Of a stretch of 64,000 nt of DNA, positions 36,745 through 49,136 are shown piece by piece. The stretch is taken from assembly GCF_988242995.1 (NCBI RefSeq), contig NZ_OZ547043.1. One strand, written 5' to 3'. A program made the position numbers and the translations under genes. Each line of letters starts with the position of its first letter. Position 1 is the stretch's first letter. The notes under the pieces are model-generated. The model was not told where the DNA came from. It made no database searches and worked only from the letters and a program-made list of their open reading frames with translations.

Positions 36745-38244
36745 TTAACTCGCCGTTTCAGGCTTAAACACAATTTCCTGTTGTTCTTCATCTTTCTCGA
36801 CGACTGGCGCAGTGCTGTGAATTTCAGCAACGCGTTTGCGCACACCAAACCAGCCTATAACCAGCAGAATACCGATAATCGGCAGCGCCGCGATAGTATA
36901 AGTCCCGTTCGGGTAATCGAACGCCATCAGCACAAGGACACTCAGTAAAAACAGTAATGTCAGCCAGGAAGTGAAGGGCGCGCCAGGCAGTTTAAAACTG
37001 ACATCCGCTGCTTTGCCTTCTTTAATCGCTTTACGCAGGCGCATCTGGCACACGATGATAAACGCCCATGAAGCGATGATTCCCAGCGACGCGAAGTTCA
37101 ACACAATCTCAAATACGCGCGACGGCACCAGATAGTTGAGGAATACGCCGACGACATACACAACCAGTGTCGCCAGAATCCCGGCATACGGCACATGCTG
37201 ACGACTCATTTTCGCCATAAAACTCGGTGCGGAACCGCCCATCGCCATTGAGCGCAGAATACGTCCGGTGCAGTACAGACCTGAGTTCAGGCTGGAGAGG
37301 GCAGCGGTCAGCACCACAATGTTCATAATGCTGCCGATGTACGGCACACCCAGTTTAGAGAAAAACGTCACGAACGGACTTTGCCCCGCCTGATACGCGC
37401 TCCACGGCAATAACATAACCAGCAACACCACGGAGCCGACGTAAAACAGGCCAATACGCCAAATCACACTGTTAATCGCTTTAGGCACCATGGTCTGCGG
37501 ATCTTTACATTCTCCGGCAGCTGTACCCACCATTTCAATGGAGGCAAAAGCAAACACTACGCCCTGAATCAACACCAGCGCAGGTAGCAAACCGTGGGGG
37601 AAGAAGCCGCCGTTATCGGTAATTAAATGAAAGCCAGTGGTGTTGCCATCCAGCGGCTGACCACTACCGAGGAACACTGTACCCACGACCAAAAAGGTCA
37701 CAATGGCGAGCACTTTAATAAGCGCAAACCAGAACTCCATCTCGGCAAACCATTTCACACCAATCATATTCATGGTGCCAACGATGGTCAGCGCAGCGAG
37801 CGCAAAGACCCACTGCGGTACACCACCAAATGCGCCCCAGTAATGCATATACAGTGCAACGGCGGTAATATCGACAATCCCTGTCATCGCCCAGTTGATG
37901 AAGTACATCCAGCCAGCAACATAAGCGGCTTTCTCTCCTAAAAACTCACGGGCATAAGAGACAAAACTGCCACTGGAAGGGCGGTGTAACACCAGCTCAC
38001 CCAATGCACGCAGAATAAAAAATGAAAACAGGCCGCAGATTAAATAGACCAGTGCCAGTGCTGGCCCCGCCATTTGCAGTCGGGCTCCTGCACCTAAAAA
38101 CAAGCCGGTGCCAATCGCGCCGCCAATGGCGATCATCTGTACCTGGCGATTGCCCATCGCTTTGTGATACCCCTCTTCGTGGGCATTAAGCCAGCGGCGT
38201 TTCGCGGCGTGCTGATCTGAAGTGTCGGTGTCGTGTTTACTCAT
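36745..38244 (-). CDS. ansP: L-asparagine permease (APC family)
   Basis: native start at internal Met (MSKHDTDTSDQHAAKRRWLNAHEEGYHKAMGNRQVQMIAIGGAIGTGLF..., 499 aa). Confidence 0.9.
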   Translation of the reverse strand: MSKHDTDTSDQHAAKRRWLNAHEEGYHKAMGNRQVQMIAIGGAIGTGLFLGAGARLQMAGPALALVYLICGLFSFFILRALGELVLHRPSSGSFVSYAREFLGEKAAYVAGWMYFINWAMTGIVDITAVALYMHYWGAFGGVPQWVFALAALTIVGTMNMIGVKWFAEMEFWFALIKVLAIVTFLVVGTVFLGSGQPLDGNTTGFHLITDNGGFFPHGLLPALVLIQGVVFAFASIEMVGTAAGECKDPQTMVPKAINSVIWRIGLFYVGSVVLLVMLLPWSAYQAGQSPFVTFFSKLGVPYIGSIMNIVVLTAALSSLNSGLYCTGRILRSMAMGGSAPSFMAKMSRQHVPYAGILATLVVYVVGVFLNYLVPSRVFEIVLNFASLGIIASWAFIIVCQMRLRKAIKEGKAADVSFKLPGAPFTSWLTLLFLLSVLVLMAFDYPNGTYTIAALPIIGILLVIGWFGVRKRVAEIHSTAPVVEKDEEQQEIVFKPETAS

Positions 38245-38509: not shown

Positions 38510-39109
38510 ATGATTAAGGTGTATGGCGTACCCGGATGGGGCTCTACAATCAGTGAGCTGATGCTAACACTGGCTGATATCCCTTATCAGTTCGTTGGTG
38601 TCAGTGGTTTTGACCACGAGGGAACTTCACGCGAGTTATTGAAAACCCTGAACCCGTTGTGTCAGGTTCCGACACTGGCGCTGGAAAATGACGAGATTAT
38701 GACGGAGACAGCGGCGATTGCATTGATGGTTCTCGATCGTCGCCCGGACCTTGCGCCACCGCTTGGGCGCGCCGAACGTCAGCAGTTTCAACGGCTATTG
38801 GTCTGGCTGGTTGCTAATGTCTATCCAACGTTCACTTTCGCCGATTACCCTGAGCTTTGGGCTCCTGACGCGCCTGAACAGTTAAAGAAGAATGTTATTG
38901 AATATCGTTTTATATCTGGTTGAATTCGCAGCTCACTGCTGAACCTTATGCGTTTGGCGATCAGCTACCCTTATCTCTGCGTTATGCGCATATGGGGACC
39001 GGGGCATGAATGGTTTCAAGATAATGCCGCGAATATCAGTGCGATTGCTGATGCTGTATGTCCGATACCAACGTTACAAGAAATACTAAAAAGGAATGCC
39101 ATTATTTAA
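38510..39109 (+). pseudogene. yncG: glutathione S-transferase-like gene yncG, disrupted by frameshifts
   Basis: N-terminal GST-like ORF ends prematurely at 38923 (137 aa); downstream sequence continues GST-like in two other frames (…YIWLNSQLTAEPYAFGDQL… then …YLCVMRIWGPGHEWFQDNAANISAIADAVC…), implying at least two indels. Confidence 0.7.
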
Positions 39110-39329
39110 CAATAATGCCGGAGATTAATGTTAATAAATCACTGGCGTAGTTAACTGGACATCCATTTGTTTGCTATGAATGGTAATTAAAGTTGGTACA
39201 ATTATTTATATGATTTATGTAATCTCGTTTTTTATATGAAATATCAATTTAATATAATCCGAAAATAAAACATCCTTTCGCATGTAGAGAAATATGTCGA
39301 TATGATAGCGCCGTGCAGATCATGTTATC

Positions 39330-40685
39330 AGGGCAGAGCGGTAGCGTATCAGGGAAAAAGCATGAAAGCCCGCGCCCCACAAGACTTTGGTGAATGATGA
39401 ATTTTTAAATCGCGACATTACTTTTATCGTAAAACCCATCATGTTGATCTTTTTTTTCGATCAATTTGACCATCTTATTTCAGTGTGATCTTATCCTTTC
39501 TTTTTGATGGATAGCACACCATGAACGGACTAAGCCTTTTGGATCAAATTTCAATTATTCACGATTATCGCCAGTCCTGGAAAACCAGTTACAGCCTGGC
39601 GGATATCCTTTTTCTGACGATCACCGCCATTATCGGTGGCGCTGAAGGATGGGAAGAAATTGCTGATTTTGGTGAGGAGCATCTGGAATGGTTACGCCTG
39701 TATGGTGATTTTGAAAATGGCACCCCCTCCCATCACACGATTGCCCGAGTGATGGGAATGATTTCAGCAAAACAATTACAGCCCCTTTTTATCCAGTAGA
39801 TGAAGGACTGTCACACGTTGTCTGAAGGCTCTGTTGTGGCGATTGATGGTAAGTCATTACGGGGTACTTACGATAAATCGAAACGTAATGCCGTGATCCA
39901 TAGGGTCAGTGCTTTTAGCGCAGAAAATCGTCTGGTTTTGGGGCAGGTGAAAACAGGGGCAAAATCGAATGAGATAACGGCGATCCCGGAACGGCTCCAG
40001 TTGCTGGAATTAAAAGGGTGTCTGGTCACGCTGGATGCAATGGGTTGCCAGCATATAATCGCCCGTGAAATTCTGAAAAAGAAAGCCGGTTACCTGCTGG
40101 CGCTGAAAGGAAATCAGGGAAAATTAGCGGAGGCGTTTGATAACGGGTACTCGCCGACAATGTGGCTGGGTGAGAGGTATGACAGTTACAGCACGCAGGA
40201 AAAAGGGCATGGACGGGAAGATACACGATGCTGCATTGTGAGCCATGATTTAACCGCTCTGGGTGATTTAGCTTATGAATGGTCAGAGCTGAGCACGATA
40301 GGAATAGTGCTGGCGAGCAGACAGGAAGGAGAAACAGCGGTGAAATCAGAGAAGTGTATTCTTCGCTACTACATAAGTTCGGTGACGCTTACGGCGAAAG
40401 AACTCCTGGAAGCAACACGAGCACACTGGTCGGTAGAAAATCAACTGCACTGGCGACTTGATATGGGGATGCGGGAAGATGAATGCCAGATTGTTCGTGG
40501 AGAAGCGGGAGAAAATCTGGCAGTTTGTCGACATATCGCGATGAATTTACTGACCGCAGAGAATAGCTTTAAAGCGGGTATTAAACGCAAGCAAAAGCGG
40601 GCAGGACGTAAGAATGAATACCTTTCTCTAATCCTTGCTGGCTGCGGGCCTTCATGATTTCGCCCTGCGGTTAGAGGTTAATTAT
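39330..40685 (+). mobile_element. H-repeat (ISAs1-family) element, copy 1 (ends approximate)
   Basis: ~100-bp conserved upstream block (ATGAAAGCCCGCGCCCCACAAG...CATCATGTTG) shared with the second copy at ~46100; transposase-like ORF; similar sequence just after both stop codons. Confidence 0.6.
39521..40657 (+). pseudogene. H-repeat-associated (ISAs1-family) transposase interrupted by in-frame amber codon
   Basis: 92-aa and 285-aa ORFs are in the same frame, separated only by TAG at 39797-39799; combined 378 codons, same length as the intact paralog at 46358..47494. Confidence 0.75.
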
Positions 40686-41078
40686 GCTCCTGGTATGCAT
40701 GGTAAATTGATTTTGTGTTTCTCATGGTATGCTGTTAATTATAAGAGATGATTGTTTTTAAGGTTGATTAATATGTAATTCATATTTGTCATGCGACATA
40801 AAGTAATCGATTTTTTTTGTTGTGGCTTTAATTGATGGTTCTAAGGTATGCAGTTTGAGAACGTTCAGTGAATGATGTATATACAATAATAAATAATATT
40901 TGCAATAAATTTGTGTGGGTGGTTATTTTTATATTTCATTGGTACGGGATTTTACGGTTAATTAGTGAAGAGGACTTCGCTAATTTATATAGATTATTCG
41001 GGGAAATCTTATTCACTGGTTATGAATCAGTATGGATTGCACTCAGAATAAAACCATAAATAATTTAAGGAATAAACC

Positions 41079-44000
41079 ATGAGCGGAAAACCGGCGGCGC
41101 GACAGGGCGATATGACCCGCAAGGGACTGGATATTGTGCAGGGTTCAGCGGGGGTGCTGATAGGTGCGCCGACGGGAGTGGCCTGCTCGGTGTGTCCCAA
41201 CAGCCCGGTGGAGGAGCAGAAGGGTAACCCGGTGAACCCGCTACTGGGTGCGAAGGTGCTGCCGGGCGAGACGGATCTTGCGCTGCCCGGCCCGTTGCCG
41301 TTTATTCTTTCCCGCGCCTACAGCAGCTACCGGACCAGGACACCCGCGCCGGTGGGGGTGTTTGGTCCCGGCTGGAAAGCGCCCTTCGATATCCGCTTAC
41401 AGGTTCATGAGCGGGAACTGATACTCAACGACAGTGGCGGCAGGAGCATTCACTTTGAGCCGCTGTTTCCCGGCGAGATAAGCTACAGCCGCAGCGAGTC
41501 GTTCTGGCTGGCAAGGGGCGGGGTGGCGGAGCAGCACAGTTCGCAGCCGCTAAGCGCGCTCTGGCAGGTGCTGCCGGAGAGTCTCCGCTTAAGCCCGCAT
41601 GTGTACCTGGCGACAAACAGCCTTCAGGGGCCGTGGTGGATACTCGGCTGGCCGGAGCGGGTACCGGAGGCGGACGAGGTGCTGCCGCCGGAGCCGCCCG
41701 CATACCGGGTGCTGACGGGCGTGGTGGACGGCTTCGGGCGGACGCTGGCCTTCCACCGGGCGGCAGAGGGGGAAGCGGCGGGCGCGGTGACGGGGGTGAC
41801 GGACGGCGCGGGCCGCCGTTTTCATCTGGCGCTGACCACACAGGCGCAGCGGGCGAAAGCCTTCCGTAAACAGCGCGAGTCTTCTTTATCTTCTCCGGCC
41901 AGTCCCCGTTCTGTTTCCTCTTCTCAGTTTTTCCCCGACACGCTGCCCACCGGTACAGAGTACGGTGCCGATAACGGTATCCGGCTGGAGGCGGTATGGC
42001 TGACACACGACCCGGCATACCCGGATGAACTGCCGACTGCGCCGCTGGCGCGCTACACGTACACGGCCAGCGGAGAACTGCGGGCGGTGTATGACCGCAG
42101 CGGTACGCAGGTGCGCGGGTTTACTTATGATGCGGAGCACGCCGGGCGGATGGTGGCGCACCATTATGCGGGGAGGCCGGAGAGCCGCTACCGGTATGAT
42201 GATACCGGTCGGGTGACGGAGCAGGTCAACCCGGAGGGGCTGGACTACCGCTTTGAGTACGGGCAGGACCGCGTGACCATCACGGACAGCCTGAACCGGC
42301 GGGAGGTGCTGTACACGGAGGGCGAGGGCGGCCTGAAGCGGGTGGTGAAGAAGGAGTATGGGGACGGGAGCATCACCCGCAGCGAGTATGATGAGGCGGG
42401 GAGGCTGAAGGCGCAGACGGATGCGGCGGGACGGCGGACGGAGTACCGGCTGCATATGGCGTCGGGAAAGCTGACTTCAGTGATACTGCCGGACGGCAGG
42501 ACGGTACGGTATGGTTACAACAACCAGTTGCAACTGACGTCAGTGACGTACCCGGACGGGCTGCGCCGCAGCCGGAAATATGACCGTCAGGGCAGGCTGG
42601 CGGAAGAGGTCTCGCGCAACGGTAACATTACGCGCTGGTTTTATGATTCTTCCCGCAGTGGCCTGCCCTGTGCGGTGGAAGACGGAACCGGGGTGAGGCG
42701 GAGAATAACGCGAAACCGGTACGGTCAGCTTCAGGCATTTACGGACTGTTCAGGGTACACGACGCGGTATGAATACGACCGGTACGGTCAGAGGACGGCG
42801 GTTCACCGGGAGGAAGGCATCAGCACTTACAGCAGTTATAACCCGCGTGGTCAACTGGTCAGTCAGAAGGATGCGCAGGGACGTGAAACCCGTTATGAGT
42901 ACAGCGCCGCAGGCGACCTCACCGCTATCATTGCCCCGAACGGCAGCCGGAGTGAGACACAGTATGATGCGTGGGGAAAGGCCGTCAGCACCACGCAGGG
43001 CGGACTGACGCGCAGCATGGAGTATGACGCCGCCGGGAGCATCACCGTGCTGACCAACGAGAACGGCAGCCAGTCCACGTTCCGGTATGACCCGGTGGAC
43101 AGGCTGACGGAGCAGCGCGGCTTTGACGGCAGGACACAGCGTTACCGGTACAGCGCCACAGGGCAGCTCATCCGCAGCGAGGATGAGGGGCAGGTCACGC
43201 AGTGGTACTACGATGACGCCGGGCGCATCACGCACCGGACGGTGAACGGCGACCCGGCGGAGCAGTGGCAGTATGACGACCACGGCTGGCTGACAGAAAT
43301 CAGCCACCTGAGCGAAGGCCACCGTGTGGCGGTCCACTACGGCTATGACGATAAAGGCCGCCTGACGGGCGAACGGCAGACGGTGGAGAACCAGGAGACG
43401 GGGGAGATGCTGTGGGAGCATGAGACGAGGCACGTCTACAGCGAACAGGGGCTGGCGACCCGTCAGGAGCCGGACGGTCTGCCGCCGGTGGAGTGGCTGA
43501 CGTATGGCAGCGGTTATCTTGCGGGGATGAAGCTGGGCGGAACGCCGCTGGTCGAGTACACGCGGGACCGGCTGCACCGTGAGACGGCCCGCAGCTTCGG
43601 CGGGGCGGGCAGTACAGCGGGGTACGAACAGGCCACGGCGTACACCCTCACAGGGCAGCTCCGGAGCAGGCACCTGAACCTTCCGCAGCTTGACCGTGAG
43701 TATACGTGGAACGATAACGGGCAACTGGTGCGCATCAGCGGCCCGCAGGAGAGCCGGAAGTACCGTTACAGCGACACGGGAAGACTGACGGGCGTTCACA
43801 CCACGGCGGCGAACCTGGATATCGATATCCCGTATGCGACGGACCCGGCAGGAAACCGGCTGCCGGACCCGGAACTGCACCCGGACAGCACCTTCACGGC
43901 GTGGCCGGATAACCGCATCACGGAAGATGCGCACTATGTCTACCGCTACGATGAATACGGCAGGCTGGCGGAGAAGACGGACCGTATCCCGGAAGGGGTG

Positions 44001-45290
44001 ATACGGATGCACGACGAGCGGACGCACCACTACCATTACGACAGCCAGCACCGCCTGGTGTTCTACACGCGGATACAGCACGGCGAGCCACAGGTGGAGA
44101 GCCGCTACCTCTATGACCCGCTGGGCCGCCGGACGGGGAAACGGGTGTGGCGGCGGGAGCGTGACCTGACGGGGTGGATGTCGCTGTCGCGTAAACCGGA
44201 GGAGACCTGGTACGGGTGGGACGGTGACAGGCTGACGACGGTACAGACCGGCACCACGCGTATCCAGACGGTATACCAGCCGGGGAGCTTCACGCCGCTC
44301 ATCAGAATCGAAACAGAGAATGGTGAACAGGCGAAGGCGCGGCACCGGAGTCTGGCGGAGGTGTTGCAGGAGGACACGGGGGTGACGCTACCGGCGGAGC
44401 TGTCGGTGATGCTGGGGAGGCTGGAGCGGGAACTGCGCGCGGGTGCGGTGAGTGCGGAGAGTGAGGCATGGCTTCAGCAGTGCGGGCTGACGGCGGAACA
44501 GATGAAAAACCAGATGGAGGCGGAATACATCCCGGAGAGGACACTTCATCTTTACCACTGCGACCACCGGGGGCTGCCGCAGGCGCTCATCAGCCCGGAA
44601 GGGGAAACGGCGTGGCAGGGGGAGTATGACGAGTGGGGAAACCTGCTGGGCGAAACCAGCGCGCAGCAACTGCAACAGCCGTACCGTCTGCCGGGGCAGC
44701 AGTATGATGAGGAGTCGGGGCTGTACTATAACCGCAACCGGTACTATGACCCGTTGCAGGGGCGGTATATCACCCAGGATCCCATTGGGCTAAGAGGTGC
44801 ATGGAACCTGTATCAGTATCCATTGAATCCAACTACTAAGATAGATCCGTTGGGTCTCTCCGGAGAAGATTCCATAGAGCAGTCAGGTCCATCTTGGTTG
44901 ATTGCTGACCCCATGGATAAATACAGACAACAGGCAGTGATGGGTTTAACAAAATTGTGGGATGATACCTTTAGTCAAGAGAAGACTAAATGTTTACCTA
45001 CGACACCTGAAAACATCAGGATGGTTGTGGCCAACAGTCCCTTGTTGACAGTACAACAAAAAGTCTCAGTACCCGTAGTAGCTCACTACGTACAAATGCT
45101 GGAAGATGGTAGTGGAGCACCACCGGTTGATATGGATGGGAATGTGATTGTTAATGGTAATCACAGGATGGTTGCGGGTCTGTTATGTGATAAACTTCCT
45201 CCTGAGCGGCCAGGTACGCGTCCATTATCGGCACCACTATATCCGTTTAGCCAAATTTTTCCGGAGTTAGATGATTGGGGGAATAGATGA
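41079..45290 (+). CDS. Rhs-family polymorphic toxin, full length (PAAR-like N-terminus, YD-repeat shell, DPxGL boundary, variable C-terminal toxin tip)
   Basis: 1403 aa; N-terminus [12 protein letters not shown]...GVACSVCPN; many YD repeats; conserved core end ...[33 protein letters not shown] (ends 44858); GC-rich core, AT-rich tip after 44858. Confidence 0.95.
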
Positions 45291-45772
45291 TAAGAATCGC
45301 GTTTTTAATAACCAATAAATTTCTTGATATAGATAGTACCACTCTTGCTGGATATGATTTTAGCGGGATGGATCTACATCGTGCCATCCTCAATGGTTAT
45401 TGTCTTGATGGGGCGAAATTTGAAAATTCCCATTTAAGAAATGTAATGATTCAACATACATCAACTAGAAATGCTGTCTTTCGCAATGCGGCTCTGATGA
45501 ACGCTATTCTTAATAACTCAGATTTCACTGGAAGTGACTTTAGTAATTCAAGGTCAATAGGTGCAAACTTTGAGGGTGCTATATTAACTAATTCAACCTT
45601 TTGCAATGCAGACGTTAAAGATTCAAATTTTTCTGGTGCTGACTTATGTGGCGCTAATTTATTATGTGATAGATATGGCGATATAAATATAACAGGTGCA
45701 TTATTCGATAAAAACACCTCATGGTTAGAAGGTTTTGATCCTATAGCTCATGGGGCTATATTAAAAATATGA
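45287..45772 (+). CDS. pentapeptide-repeat protein, putative cognate immunity protein of the Rhs C-terminal toxin
   Basis: 161 aa; start overlaps rhs stop (ATGA); consecutive A(D/N)(L/F)xx pentapeptides ([40 protein letters not shown]...); AT-rich like the toxin tip. Confidence 0.8.
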
Positions 45773-46064
45773 CAAGGATCATAACTCATTATTTTCTGTG
45801 TCAGTAACACTGATGTGGAAAGTAGACTTACTTGCAATAGCCACCGGGATCTGCTGTTGAAAGCCGATCCCAAACAACCCCGGTTGCTGTGGTAAAGAGT
45901 CATAGTAGCGAGCGCAGGGGGAGTGCTCAGATTATATGAGATACAGTGAAATGAATAAACCCGAACCTGTGTTGACGTGTCGTTAGTCCTAAGCGGCATC
46001 AGAACCGGAGGTTTCGTGATACCGCCGTGATAAATTTACGGGTGAATTCCGAATGCTACGTAAA

Positions 46065-47520
46065 GGGTGTCCGGCGTATAGCAGACATCAGGATAAAAGT
46101 ATGAAAGCCCACGCCCCACAAGGCTTTACCGGATGATGAGTTTTTAAACTACGACATTACTTTTACAGTAAAATCCATCATGTTGGTATTTTCTCTCGAA
46201 CAATTTGACGATCCACGGAAAGATCACGTAACGCTGCTTTTTTGTACTAGACAATTCGCATTTTATGTTTAACAATTGAGATATTCCTCATTACCTGAAG
46301 CTGTTTTTTATTGCGTATACATGATCAAATACTCCTTACATAATTAAGGAGAACAAAATGGAACTTAAAAAATTGATGGAACATATTTCTATTATCCCCG
46401 ATTACAGACAAGCCTGGAAAGTGGAACATAAATTTTCGGATATTCTACTGTTGACTATTTGTGCCGTTATTTCGGGTGCAGAAGGCTGGGAAGATATAGA
46501 GGATTTTGGGGAAACACATCTCGATTTTTTGAAGCAATATGGTGATTTTGATAATGGTATTCCTGTTCACGATACCATTGCCAGAGTTGTATCCTGTATC
46601 AGTCCTGCAAAATTTCACGAGTGCTTTATTAACTGGATGCGTGACTGCCATTCTTCAGATGATAAAGACGTCATCGCAATTGATGGAAAAACACTCCGGC
46701 ATTCTTATGACAAGAGTCGCCGCAAGGGAGCGATTCATGTCATTAGTGCGTTCTCAACAATGCACAGTCTGGTTATCGGACAGATCAGGACGGATGAGAA
46801 ATCCAATGAGATTACAGCTATTCCAGAACTTCTTAACATGCTGGATATTAAAGGAAAAATCATCACAACTGATGCGATGGGTTGCCAGAAAGATATTGCA
46901 GAGAAGATACAAAAACAGGGCGGTGATTATTTATTCGCTGTAAAAGGAAACCAGGGGCGGCTAAATAAAGCCTTCGAGGAAAAATTTCCGCTGAAAGAAT
47001 TAAATAATCCAGAGCATGACAGTTACGCAATTAGTGAAAAGAGTCACGGCAGAGAAGAAATCCGTCTTCACATTGTTTGCGATGTCCCTGATGAACTTAT
47101 TGATTTCACGTTTGAATGGAAAGGTCTGAAGAAATTATGCGTGGCAGTCTCCTTTCGGTCAATAATAGCAGAACAAAAGAAAGAGCCAGAAATGACGGTC
47201 AGATATTATATCAGTTCTGCTGATTTAACCGCAGAGAAGTTCGCCACAGCAATCCGAAACCACTGGCACGTGGAGAATAAGCTGCACTGGCGTCTGGACG
47301 TGGTAATGAATGAAGACGACTGCAAAATAAGAAGAGGAAATGCAGCAGAATTATTTTCAGGGATACGGCACATGGCTATTAATATTTTAACGAATGATAA
47401 GATATTTAAGGCAGGGTTAAGACGTAAGATGCGAAAAGCAGCCATGGACAGAAACTACCTGGCGTCAGTCCTTGCTGGGTGCGGGCTTTCGTAATCTTGC
47501 CCTGCGCCAAAGATTCCATA
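46065..47520 (+). mobile_element. H-repeat (ISAs1-family) element, copy 2 (ends approximate)
   Basis: conserved upstream block homologous to copy 1; intact transposase ORF. Confidence 0.6.
46358..47494 (+). CDS. ydcC: H-repeat-associated (ISAs1-family) transposase, intact (YdcC-like)
   Basis: 378 aa; [52 protein letters not shown]...; clearly related to but diverged from the copy at 39521..40657. Confidence 0.85.
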
Positions 47521-47539
47521 TAATAATATTAAGGTTGTT

Positions 47540-48175
47540 ATGAATAAAGGTAATAGATTACAACAGTTAGAAGATGCGTGTCGTGATATTATTAAAATTA
47601 ACATGTGGTATGAACTCCCCGATTATGTATTTTTTTCAATATCTGACACCATCGATGGGACGAGTGATGAATTTGCAATAAATGTGTATAAAAATATCGA
47701 TAAAAGTCTTCTTGAAATATTATTGCATCCATCTGTTTTACTGTCAGTTGTTGAGTCCTTACAAAGTAATACTATAGCTGAGTATATCGTGAAATTGTCT
47801 GGAATAGAGATGAATTATGACGACTTGCTAATATCGGATGTTAAGTCATGTCTTTTTATCAACTATGGATTCAATAACAGTGAATCGGTTGCGCTATTTA
47901 ATAAGATTTGCCGCGAATTAAAAGACATTGTAAAATCATCAAGAGTACATATAGATCATGAGAAAGATATTTTTGATGGCCTTAATCAAATCTTGGCTTT
48001 TTCCGATAATAATAAACGTGAGTATTTTTTATATATAAAGGCATATTGGCTCAGTTTATACTTTTGTGAAATTTCACAGAACGTGAGAGAAAGAGATAAG
48101 TTGTCATTTTATTATAATGAATTTTCTGTCCGATTTCCTAATGTTGTCCTATATCCGTCATGCTACAAATTGTAA
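47540..48175 (+). CDS. hypothetical protein (211 aa), AT-rich, no TM segments
   Basis: ORF track; AAGG 7 nt upstream of ATG; very low GC; no recognisable family. Confidence 0.5.
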   Translation: MNKGNRLQQLEDACRDIIKINMWYELPDYVFFSISDTIDGTSDEFAINVYKNIDKSLLEILLHPSVLLSVVESLQSNTIAEYIVKLSGIEMNYDDLLISDVKSCLFINYGFNNSESVALFNKICRELKDIVKSSRVHIDHEKDIFDGLNQILAFSDNNKREYFLYIKAYWLSLYFCEISQNVRERDKLSFYYNEFSVRFPNVVLYPSCYKL

Positions 48176-48566
48176 GGCTTGGCACCTGAAATTCATTGTT
48201 AATTCGAGACGCTTGATTGTCCACTATATCAAAACAGTCATACCTCGGAATTTCTCACATTAGTCCATACGGTATTCAATTTTCGCAACTGTGCCCTGAA
48301 ATAAAAAACTGCAAAACTGCTTTTTCTTGACCTGTCCCAATCACGCAAGACTACTTTTAGTAGAGACCTCCAGCCATATCGATTTTAGTGCCGCCCGCGC
48401 ATTTTATACAAAACAGGGCTTTATCAATGAAGCTATAATACGCAATTACTATGATGTTGGTGAGGATAAATTAATCTTCACTAAAAATATGCAATCGTGA
48501 GATAAAATATGCTTTTAACTCATATTGAAACATTGCTTACGCAACTTCGTTGCTGCATATGATTCT

Positions 48567-49136
48567 TTAGCCAGCGGTAATACGCTTGCCGCTGGTAACA
48601 AACGTGCCAGCACCTAAATGATGCAACGTATTGAGTTTGTCATCATCAAACTGCCAGCGGCCTTCGACAAATACTCGTGCGTCTGCCGCTGCTGATACTA
48701 CCTCGCCAAACAGTGTGTCGTATTTTTCTTGCGCAGAAGTCGCAGGTAGCAGGCGACACTCCATCCACGCCAGACATTTTTCCTCGACCAGCGGCAAACC
48801 AAGCACCGGGCCTCTCACTACCGGAATGCCGTAGCAATTAAATTTATCTTCTTCACGCCCCGACACACTTCCCACCGCCCACGTCCAGTTAGTTGCTGCA
48901 ACACCCGGGATAACGATGCCAAACTTACCATTACGTTCAATCAACTCCCTGGTCCATGTCGATTTATCTACCACAATCGCCACGCGTGGCGGTTCAAACT
49001 CCACCGGCATTGACCAGGCTGCTGCCATAATGTTACGCCGCTGGGATTGCTCATCGAAACTGGTGATCATGACAGTTGGGCCATGATTTAACAGACGGCT
49101 GGCATGGTGTAATTCGACGGGAATGAATTGGCTCAC
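48567..49136 (-). CDS. yddH: flavin reductase-like (FMN-binding split-barrel) protein YddH
   Basis: 189 aa; recognised as YddH. Confidence 0.85.
   Translation of the reverse strand: MSQFIPVELHHASRLLNHGPTVMITSFDEQSQRRNIMAAAWSMPVEFEPPRVAIVVDKSTWTRELIERNGKFGIVIPGVAATNWTWAVGSVSGREEDKFNCYGIPVVRGPVLGLPLVEEKCLAWMECRLLPATSAQEKYDTLFGEVVSAAADARVFVEGRWQFDDDKLNTLHHLGAGTFVTSGKRITAG

Follow-up and report, generated by a model that had tools for sequence, protein, structure and literature searches.

The C-terminal tip of an Rhs protein is established to be encapsulated in a shell of YD repeats, freed by self-cleavage after a DPxGL motif, and delivered by the type VI secretion spike (PMC8636562, PMC8765631). 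In the C-terminal displacement model (Jackson et al. 2009, PMC2935791), it is recombination within core sequence that replaces such a tip, and insertion sequences are not the recombining partners. ParB-type toxin domains with a conserved DGHHR motif (Tox-ParB) have been described on RHS proteins, and their activity, nuclease or phosphotransfer, is itself merely predicted (Zhang et al. 2012, PMC3482391). Here we describe an Rhs element between yncG and yddH in Escherichia coli, located at positions 38,510 to 48,566 of a 64,000-nt stretch of contig NZ_OZ547043.1 (assembly GCF_988242995.1); we refer to the whole 64,000-nt stretch as the window. This interval is the rhsE integration hotspot of E. 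coli, a known kind of locus, which in K-12 holds the RhsE element (rhsE-ydcD-yncI-ydcC, b1456 to b1460). We drew up its inventory (Table 1) from a listing of open reading frames (ORFs), a composition profile, and family scans (Pfam, NCBIfam, and PADLOC), and we used 5426 complete E. coli genomes as the comparison set. The island by itself adds little, as its architecture has long been known: Rhs loci with H-repeats, GC-rich cores, and foreign tips have been recognized since the 1990s. The strongest new result is the pairing of the Rhs tip, which we predict to be a toxin domain of the ParB/sulfiredoxin fold, with a pentapeptide-repeat protein encoded directly downstream, its predicted immunity protein.

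We found that the tip (the last 142 residues) has no match in Pfam, NCBIfam, or PADLOC, and phmmer and profile searches against PDB sequences returned nothing meaningful. A word-indexed homologue search gave four relatives of the tip only; an exhaustive profile search revealed a family of 389 cluster representatives at an E value of ≤0.001. The domain always lies at the extreme C terminus, in proteins of 70 to 2400 residues, and the long members that we sampled are RHS, DUF6531, or TcdB-type proteins. When we aligned 53 members, a glutamine, a glycine, a histidine, and an arginine were invariant, and the consensus read VS-P--Y---G--PPI-VDG--IVDGNHRY-AG. In the window Rhs these residues are Q1326, G1360, H1362, and R1363, the last three forming the G-x-H-R motif that binds phosphate in the ParB/sulfiredoxin superfamily. 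The tip family is widespread, and it is absent from the curated libraries that we searched.

To characterize the fold, we built an AlphaFold2 model of the tip domain from the family alignment (predicted local distance difference test score, 92.4). The tip models confidently as a ParB/sulfiredoxin fold of about 100 residues. A Foldseek search of this model against the PDB gave nothing significant. We also compared the family profile with human sulfiredoxin (the sequence used is identical to PDB 1yzs) by hhalign, which aligned DGNHRY with the sulfiredoxin active-site stretch GGCHRY at an E value of 0.0015 and a probability of only 17%. Among curated ParB models we found no ParBc match and, in a few members, faint matches to DUF1015 (E = 0.059) and ddrB-ParB (E = 0.14). 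Like the published Tox-ParB domains, the tip is a C-terminal domain found on RHS and other polymorphic-toxin scaffolds, models with the ParB superfamily fold, and carries a DG(H/N)HR motif (PMC3482391). Unlike them, its family has the consensus DGNHR, with the exact DGHHR in a minority of members, and lacks a ParB Pfam match. The partners listed for Tox-ParB also differ from the one found here: they are Imm20, Imm27, and Imm-SuFu, and pentapeptide repeats are unmentioned in the main text of that paper (PMC3482391). Going by the published description of their motif and fold, the tip most likely falls within the computationally defined Tox-ParB toxins as a subgroup.

In the Bacillota homologues from Cytobacillus horneckiae and Paenibacillus barcinonensis, we noted that a K-LDLQLFA motif precedes the toxin domain. 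It is similar to the site at which the Prp protease cleaves ribosomal protein L27 and some phage proteins. The motif hints that a different release mechanism may serve the same toxin domain in Bacillota.

We found that the gene overlapping the end of the Rhs gene encodes a 161-amino-acid pentapeptide-repeat protein (PF00805, E = 1.3e-19), and its fold was confirmed. A homologous ORF of 157 to 163 amino acids starts at or overlaps the toxin stop codon in all six relatives that we looked up, and one of these ORFs had previously gone uncalled. We scanned for the pairing in one genome per species (80 loci), applying a hidden Markov model of the immunity family to the downstream ORFs. The loci span genera such as Neisseria, Aggregatibacter, Pseudomonas, Achromobacter, and Sinorhizobium, and their phyla include Pseudomonadota, Bacteroidota, Bacillota, Myxococcota, Planctomycetota, Actinomycetota, and Verrucomicrobiota, among others. 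A pentapeptide-repeat homologue lies directly 3' of the toxin at 62 of the 80 loci, or 62 of the 78 that have enough downstream sequence. The N-terminal scaffolds differ among the paired loci, and Bacillota and Actinomycetota, which have no type VI secretion, are included. Therefore, the gene is tied to the toxin domain and not to the secretion apparatus. Conservation of the pairing across phyla and scaffolds is the signature of a cognate immunity gene.

Pentapeptide-repeat proteins do occur in some type VI secretion clusters (PMC3942780), and on this basis the gene could be read as a secretion accessory like TagAB or TagB and not as an immunity gene. We regard this as extremely improbable, because the gene follows the toxin under any scaffold, including short orphan tips and proteins of Bacillota, Actinomycetota, and Bacteroidota, and because overlap with the toxin stop codon is the typical position of an immunity gene.

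The toxin and immunity proteins diverge in step, with 33 to 66% identity for the immunity proteins versus 35 to 66% for the toxins. All seven of the immunity homologues that we examined are acidic (isoelectric point [pI], 4.7 to 5.3), a charge that is suggestive of DNA mimicry by the immunity protein. These properties recall McbG, AlbG, Qnr, and MfpA, which are likewise acidic self-protection factors encoded beside a toxic function and which shield DNA gyrase. Two of them, AlbG and McbG, confer self-immunity to gyrase poisons. By this comparison, the pentapeptide-repeat protein would shield the target of the toxin, and the tip would be a gyrase- or topoisomerase-directed enzyme. A fused toxin-linker-immunity model that we made with AlphaFold2 from a 32-row paired alignment is compatible with this possibility: it consists of confident separate domains with a predicted template modeling score of only 0.62, and it has no confident toxin-immunity interface. 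However, we consider target protection unlikely. The 161-amino-acid protein scored 30 to 37 bits against the Qnr and MfpA equivalog models, far below their cutoffs of 240 to 460, and it is shorter than the 180 to 216 residues of the solved Qnr, AlbG, and MfpA chains. Its partner is a protein toxin domain and not a small-molecule gyrase poison, and we found no evidence of a link to gyrase. Pentapeptide-repeat folds are also too uniform for the rank of a fold match to say anything of function. Finally, strict one-to-one adjacency and divergence in step make up the pattern expected of immunity by direct binding.

The explanation that we favor, and hold to be probable, is that the interval is the rhsE hotspot occupied by a complete Rhs toxin element, with a ParB/sulfiredoxin-fold tip and a pentapeptide-repeat immunity protein, among the scars of earlier occupants. 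By analogy with other Rhs proteins, the YD-repeat shell would enclose the tip. The core domain would cleave itself after DPxGL and so free the tip, as its motif and the solved Rhs proteins suggest, and delivery would be by a type VI spike, as established for Rhs. In the recipient cytoplasm, the fold and motif suggest that the tip may bind nucleotide and attack a nucleic-acid or nucleotide-linked target, which is most likely DNA. Given the position of its gene, the 161-amino-acid protein would neutralize the tip, with its β-helix most likely binding the toxin directly.

Several points weigh against this explanation. The fused model described above is one of them. Another is that 16 of the 78 assessable loci have no pentapeptide-repeat gene after the toxin. 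These loci mostly have the weakest toxin matches and may belong to a sister subfamily that relies on another immunity protein. The tip of the window is acidic (pI 5.2), whereas the median pI of its family is 8.2; as an indicator of DNA mimicry, net charge is uninformative for the toxin. None of the VgrG, PAAR, or chaperone genes is present in the 64-kb window. In addition, the toxicity, the target, the autoproteolysis, the delivery route, and the immunity mechanism are steps that we infer. As a separate observation on the 16 loci, 15 have no pentapeptide-repeat gene within the sequence around the toxin, and the sixteenth has one upstream.

The toxin-immunity pair lies outside the curated libraries that we searched, and in the literature we found no direct description of a ParB-type toxin with pentapeptide-repeat immunity, save for one possibly related 2026 preprint. 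That preprint reports a PAAR-Rhs-Tse6/Tsi6a system of Stenotrophomonas rhizophila (bioRxiv 10.64898/2026.07.13.738213). Like the window Rhs, it has a C-terminal toxin of unassigned activity, and Tsi6a reportedly resembles an antitoxin with pentapeptide repeats that belongs to a type VII toxin of Mycobacterium chelonae. In contrast to the window Rhs, which has neither nearby, the S. rhizophila Rhs comes with a PAAR domain and a vgrG cluster.

We tentatively propose, as a possibility that we would not rate as the likelier outcome, that the pentapeptide-repeat protein acts as an inhibitor shaped like DNA and dedicated to the ParB/sulfiredoxin-fold toxin, or that it protects a DNA-bound target such as gyrase; either way, the pairing would be widespread and uncatalogued. 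If true, this would tell what one family of pentapeptide-repeat proteins does, in a class mostly without known function that appears here as the partner of a broadly distributed toxin family. It would also give a genetic handle on the activity of ParB-type toxins, and the conserved pair offers a simple two-gene assay for the action of such toxins and for β-helical neutralization.

The RHS core equivalog NF041261 aligns along its entire length with residues 1 to 1260 of the Rhs protein, at 2510 bits (cutoff, 2000). PF05593 (YD/RHS repeats) matches 10 stretches of the protein (E = 1.7e-74), and TIGR03696 (the Rhs-associated core domain) matches residues 1183 to 1260, which close with a PxxxxDPxGL-type end before the variable tip. 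By these matches, the protein is an Rhs polymorphic-toxin protein of canonical enterobacterial build, with a YD-repeat shell closed by the core domain. At the nucleotide level the core is 72% identical to K-12 rhsA and rhsC, 77% identical to rhsD, and 80.8% identical to rhsE, and it represents a distinct lineage that is nearest the D/E group. The nearest cores bearing other tips are about 93% identical to it.

An initial annotation of this DNA had described a GC-rich Rhs core with an AT-rich tip and had taken a sharp GC shift at 44858 as a sign that the tip was acquired separately. We measured a GC content of 0.639 for the core, 0.449 for the tip, 0.346 for the immunity gene, and 0.491 for the window as a whole. 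The step coincides exactly with the DPLGL motif, which ends at 44860, 2 bases from the proposed position. The core is thus GC rich, as described, but the tip is AT rich merely relative to the core; it is the immunity gene that is truly AT rich. Separate acquisition of the tip is borne out by comparison with other genomes. Sampled across 3811 matching genomes, the homology of other E. coli Rhs cores ends between 44782 and 44855 in every case, and the tip is found in only 143 of the 5426 genomes. The question of whether the tip and the immunity gene travel together had also been raised, and we found that they do: in those 143 genomes the two are 99 to 100% identical as one unit.

Downstream of rhsA in E. 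coli SCU-102, we observed an eroded fragment (95% identity) that runs from the end of the tip into the pentapeptide immunity gene, of which the first two-thirds survive. The fragment sits in an array of displaced tips and orphan immunity genes. We found it in 132 genomes without the full module and also, as a second copy, in carriers of that module. From the identity of the unit in 143 genomes together with this eroded junction fragment, we conclude that the tip and the immunity gene travel jointly and independently of the core. Such joint mobility matches the C-terminal displacement model (PMC2935791).

To place the element among the occupants of its locus, we compared the interval with the same site in other strains. 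The K-12 order is yncG, yncH, a truncated rhsE pseudogene, ydcD, yncI, ydcC, pptA, and yddH. The window resembles the K-12 RhsE element in its chromosomal site, in its ydcC H-repeat element (96.8% nucleotide identity), and, in broad terms, in the way that a core, a tip, a small ORF 3' of them, and H-repeat elements are arranged. It differs in that rhsE is a 5'-truncated pseudogene, whereas the window Rhs is full length. Identity between the two cores is just 80.8%, and no relationship exists between the tips or between the downstream ORFs. In place of yncH and pptA of K-12, the window contains an unrelated ISAs1 element that is dead, a 211-amino-acid ORF, and a GNAT remnant. Thus, yncG, ydcC, and yddH are shared, and everything else in the interval differs.

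Including that of the window, we found six distinct contents between yncG and yddH among the compared strains. UTI89 and CFSAN061770 carry PAAR, VgrG, an M35 peptidase, and a hypothetical gene in place of Rhs, so PAAR-VgrG modules do occur at this locus in other strains. Strain 6EVA has a series of hypothetical genes with an intact GNAT gene, and NZ_AP027764 (strain 2017-02-2CC) has VgrG fragments, a group II intron, ISEc1, and ydcC. NRZ14408 and 138 further genomes have the same Rhs as the window, followed by a truncated ISAs1 element and GGDEF, sulfatase, and pptA genes. The initial annotation had named invariance of the interval across E. coli lineages as the observation that would speak against its account; we found the interval to be highly variable between lineages, and hence such invariance was not seen.

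The full arrangement of the window is present in none of the 5426 complete genomes, with a best coverage of 84%. On the left, up to 46909, the window matches the NRZ14408 type at 99% identity. To the right of this position, which is within the second ISAs1 element, and up to 52000 (yddH, nhoA, yddE, and nar genes), we observed a best identity of only 94 to 98% among the 5426 genomes. The difference between 99% identity on the left and 94 to 98% on the right suggests a between-lineage recombination breakpoint at the island. Given the differences in content from strain to strain and the split identity of the left and right parts, the yncG-yddH interval is therefore a replacement hotspot and the window a mosaic. 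Since a PAAR-VgrG-M35 peptidase module and Rhs occupy one site, the hotspot exchanges unrelated type VI secretion cargo modules. It is a clear example of unrelated secretion-system cargo (Rhs or PAAR-VgrG-peptidase) replacing one another between lineages. We propose that the content would turn over in two ways, through between-lineage replacement via the conserved flanks and through tip displacement via core homology.

The initial annotation had proposed a different route for this turnover, in which two directly oriented ISAs1-family copies flank the toxin/immunity module and recombine with each other to delete or replace it. Both copies do lie on the + strand, and they bracket the Rhs and immunity genes. 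The first element lies 5' of the whole Rhs gene, so what the pair brackets is the complete element and not the toxin/immunity module alone. The terminal 127 bp and 38 bp of the two copies are 83 to 84% identical, and the homology to the NRZ14408 type ends inside the second copy, at 46909; both observations would suit recombination between the copies. However, their transposases share 49.6% protein identity, their nucleotide identity is about 67% and in patches only, and their longest shared exact string is 14 bases. The minimal efficient processing segment described by Shen and Huang is reportedly about 25 identical bases for RecA in E. coli, and a 14-base match falls short of what RecA-dependent exchange requires. 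The break at 46909 has its explanation in NRZ14408, where the element is truncated and GGDEF and sulfatase genes follow. The sequence type of the first element is present as a single copy per genome, only at this locus, in 139 to 145 of the 5426 genomes, and 139 of the 145 genomes that match it at ≥99% identity carry at least 80% of the query, although no search aimed at hybrids of the two copies was made. We therefore think it very unlikely that recombination between the ISAs1 copies deletes or swaps the module.

The same elements allow a second reading, in which the first ISAs1 element, the Rhs gene, the immunity gene, and the second ISAs1 element arrived as a single composite transposon. 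Each element ends in imperfect inverted repeats of about 24 bp, at 39350/40667 for the first and 46089/47504 for the second, and all four termini share a similar core (CAGGG/A...ATGAAA/GGCCC). In about 390 other genomes, the match (90 to 95% identity) is confined to the 240 bases 5' of the left inverted repeat of the first element. This break in homology falls exactly at the inverted repeat, which thus sets the left boundary of the island to the base, a coincidence in favor of this reading. ISAs1-family elements generate target-site duplications of 8 to 10 bp, according to ISfinder. We found no such direct repeats around the first element, the second element, or the pair as a unit, the flanks differing in each case. 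Missing target duplications fit old insertions or later rearrangement. The first transposase is a pseudogene, with Pfam matches to DDE_Tnp_1_assoc and DDE_Tnp_1 on two halves that are separated by a TAG codon. The second element is a resident of the same site in many lineages, including K-12 and strains without this Rhs, and it is 96.8 to 97.5% identical to ydcC copies; its transposase matches NF033564 (E = 4.9e-125). The module adjoins yncG in every copy that we inspected (30 listed copies and the NRZ14408 region; the module was matched in 143 genomes). We give a composite transposon very little credence and rejected it; the 49.6% protein identity of the copies and the absence of duplications at the outer ends also speak against it. 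We conclude that the ISAs1 elements are passengers and junction scars, neither a working recombination pair nor a composite transposon. On the explanation that we favor, the first element is a dead copy marking the left edge of the island, and the second (ydcC) is a long-standing resident that truncated a group II intron.

Table 1. Features of the yncG-yddH interval and its flanks (positions in the window)
Feature	Coordinates	Strand	Evidence or remarks
ansP (L-asparagine permease), left conserved flank	36745..38244	-	Annotated in the 99%-identical NZ_CP158426 region and in K-12
yncG pseudogene (glutathione S-transferase family)	38510..39109	+	Alignment to K-12 yncG; GST_N Pfam match on the first 137 amino acids
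AT-rich spacer 3' of yncG, GC 0.325	39110..39349	.	Last segment common to E. coli genomes without the island
ISAs1-family (H-repeat) element 1	39350..40667	+	Transposase ORF 39521-40657, broken by in-frame TAG at 39797-39799
AT-rich leader 5' of Rhs, GC 0.30	40668..41078	.	Composition profile
Rhs gene, intact, 1403 amino acids	41079..45290	+	ORF listing, family scans
Rhs core, amino acids 1-1260: DUF6531, YD/RHS repeats, Rhs-associated core domain, DPLGL end	41079..44860	+	
Rhs C-terminal tip, amino acids 1261-1403: linker of ~30 amino acids, then predicted ParB/sulfiredoxin-fold domain at ~44952-45287	44861..45290	+	
161-amino-acid pentapeptide-repeat protein, predicted cognate immunity gene	45287..45772	+	Start overlaps Rhs stop (ATGA)
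Group II intron 5' fragment	45840..46088	+	Rfam RF01999, 48 bits, E = 2e-7, at 45840-45948
ISAs1-family (H-repeat) element 2, ydcC type	46089..47504	+	Intact 378-amino-acid transposase, ORF 46358-47494
211-amino-acid AT-rich ORF, GC 0.308	47540..48175	+	Occupies the K-12 pptA position
GNAT acetyltransferase remnant, last 53 codons	48339..48500	+	Weak TIGR01575 C-terminal match, E = 2.9e-4
yddH (flavin reductase family), right conserved flank	48567..49136	-	Annotations in compared strains

The gene inventory and the decay of the flanking genes agree with the initial annotation, each element being found at or within a few bases of where it had been placed. As that annotation had it, yncG is frameshifted: we found deletions of 7 bp and 11 bp relative to K-12 yncG, and the first leads to a premature stop at 38921 to 38923. 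RefSeq marks a 99%-identical copy of yncG as "frameshifted." The first transposase does carry a nonsense mutation, and the second H-repeat element is indeed intact (Table 1). A scan for promoter and terminator consensus sequences around Rhs found sites no more frequent than in shuffled sequence.

At the right end of the interval, the GNAT remnant is the product of a 463-bp deletion relative to the intact 155-amino-acid GNAT gene of strain 6EVA. The 211-amino-acid ORF has no Pfam, NCBIfam, or PADLOC match. Its homologues, at 52 to 99% identity, are found only in E. coli, Shigella, Escherichia albertii, and Pseudocitrobacter, and some sources name it "aminopeptidase," a name with no domain evidence behind it. 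Together, the ORF and the GNAT remnant are present at ≥80% coverage in 193 of the 5426 genomes.

The initial annotation had not listed the group II intron fragment, which runs up to the left inverted repeat of the second ISAs1 element and stops exactly there. We found that it is 82 to 85% similar to a sequence in NZ_AP027764 that lies just 5' of ltrA, the reverse transcriptase gene, and beside a VgrG fragment.

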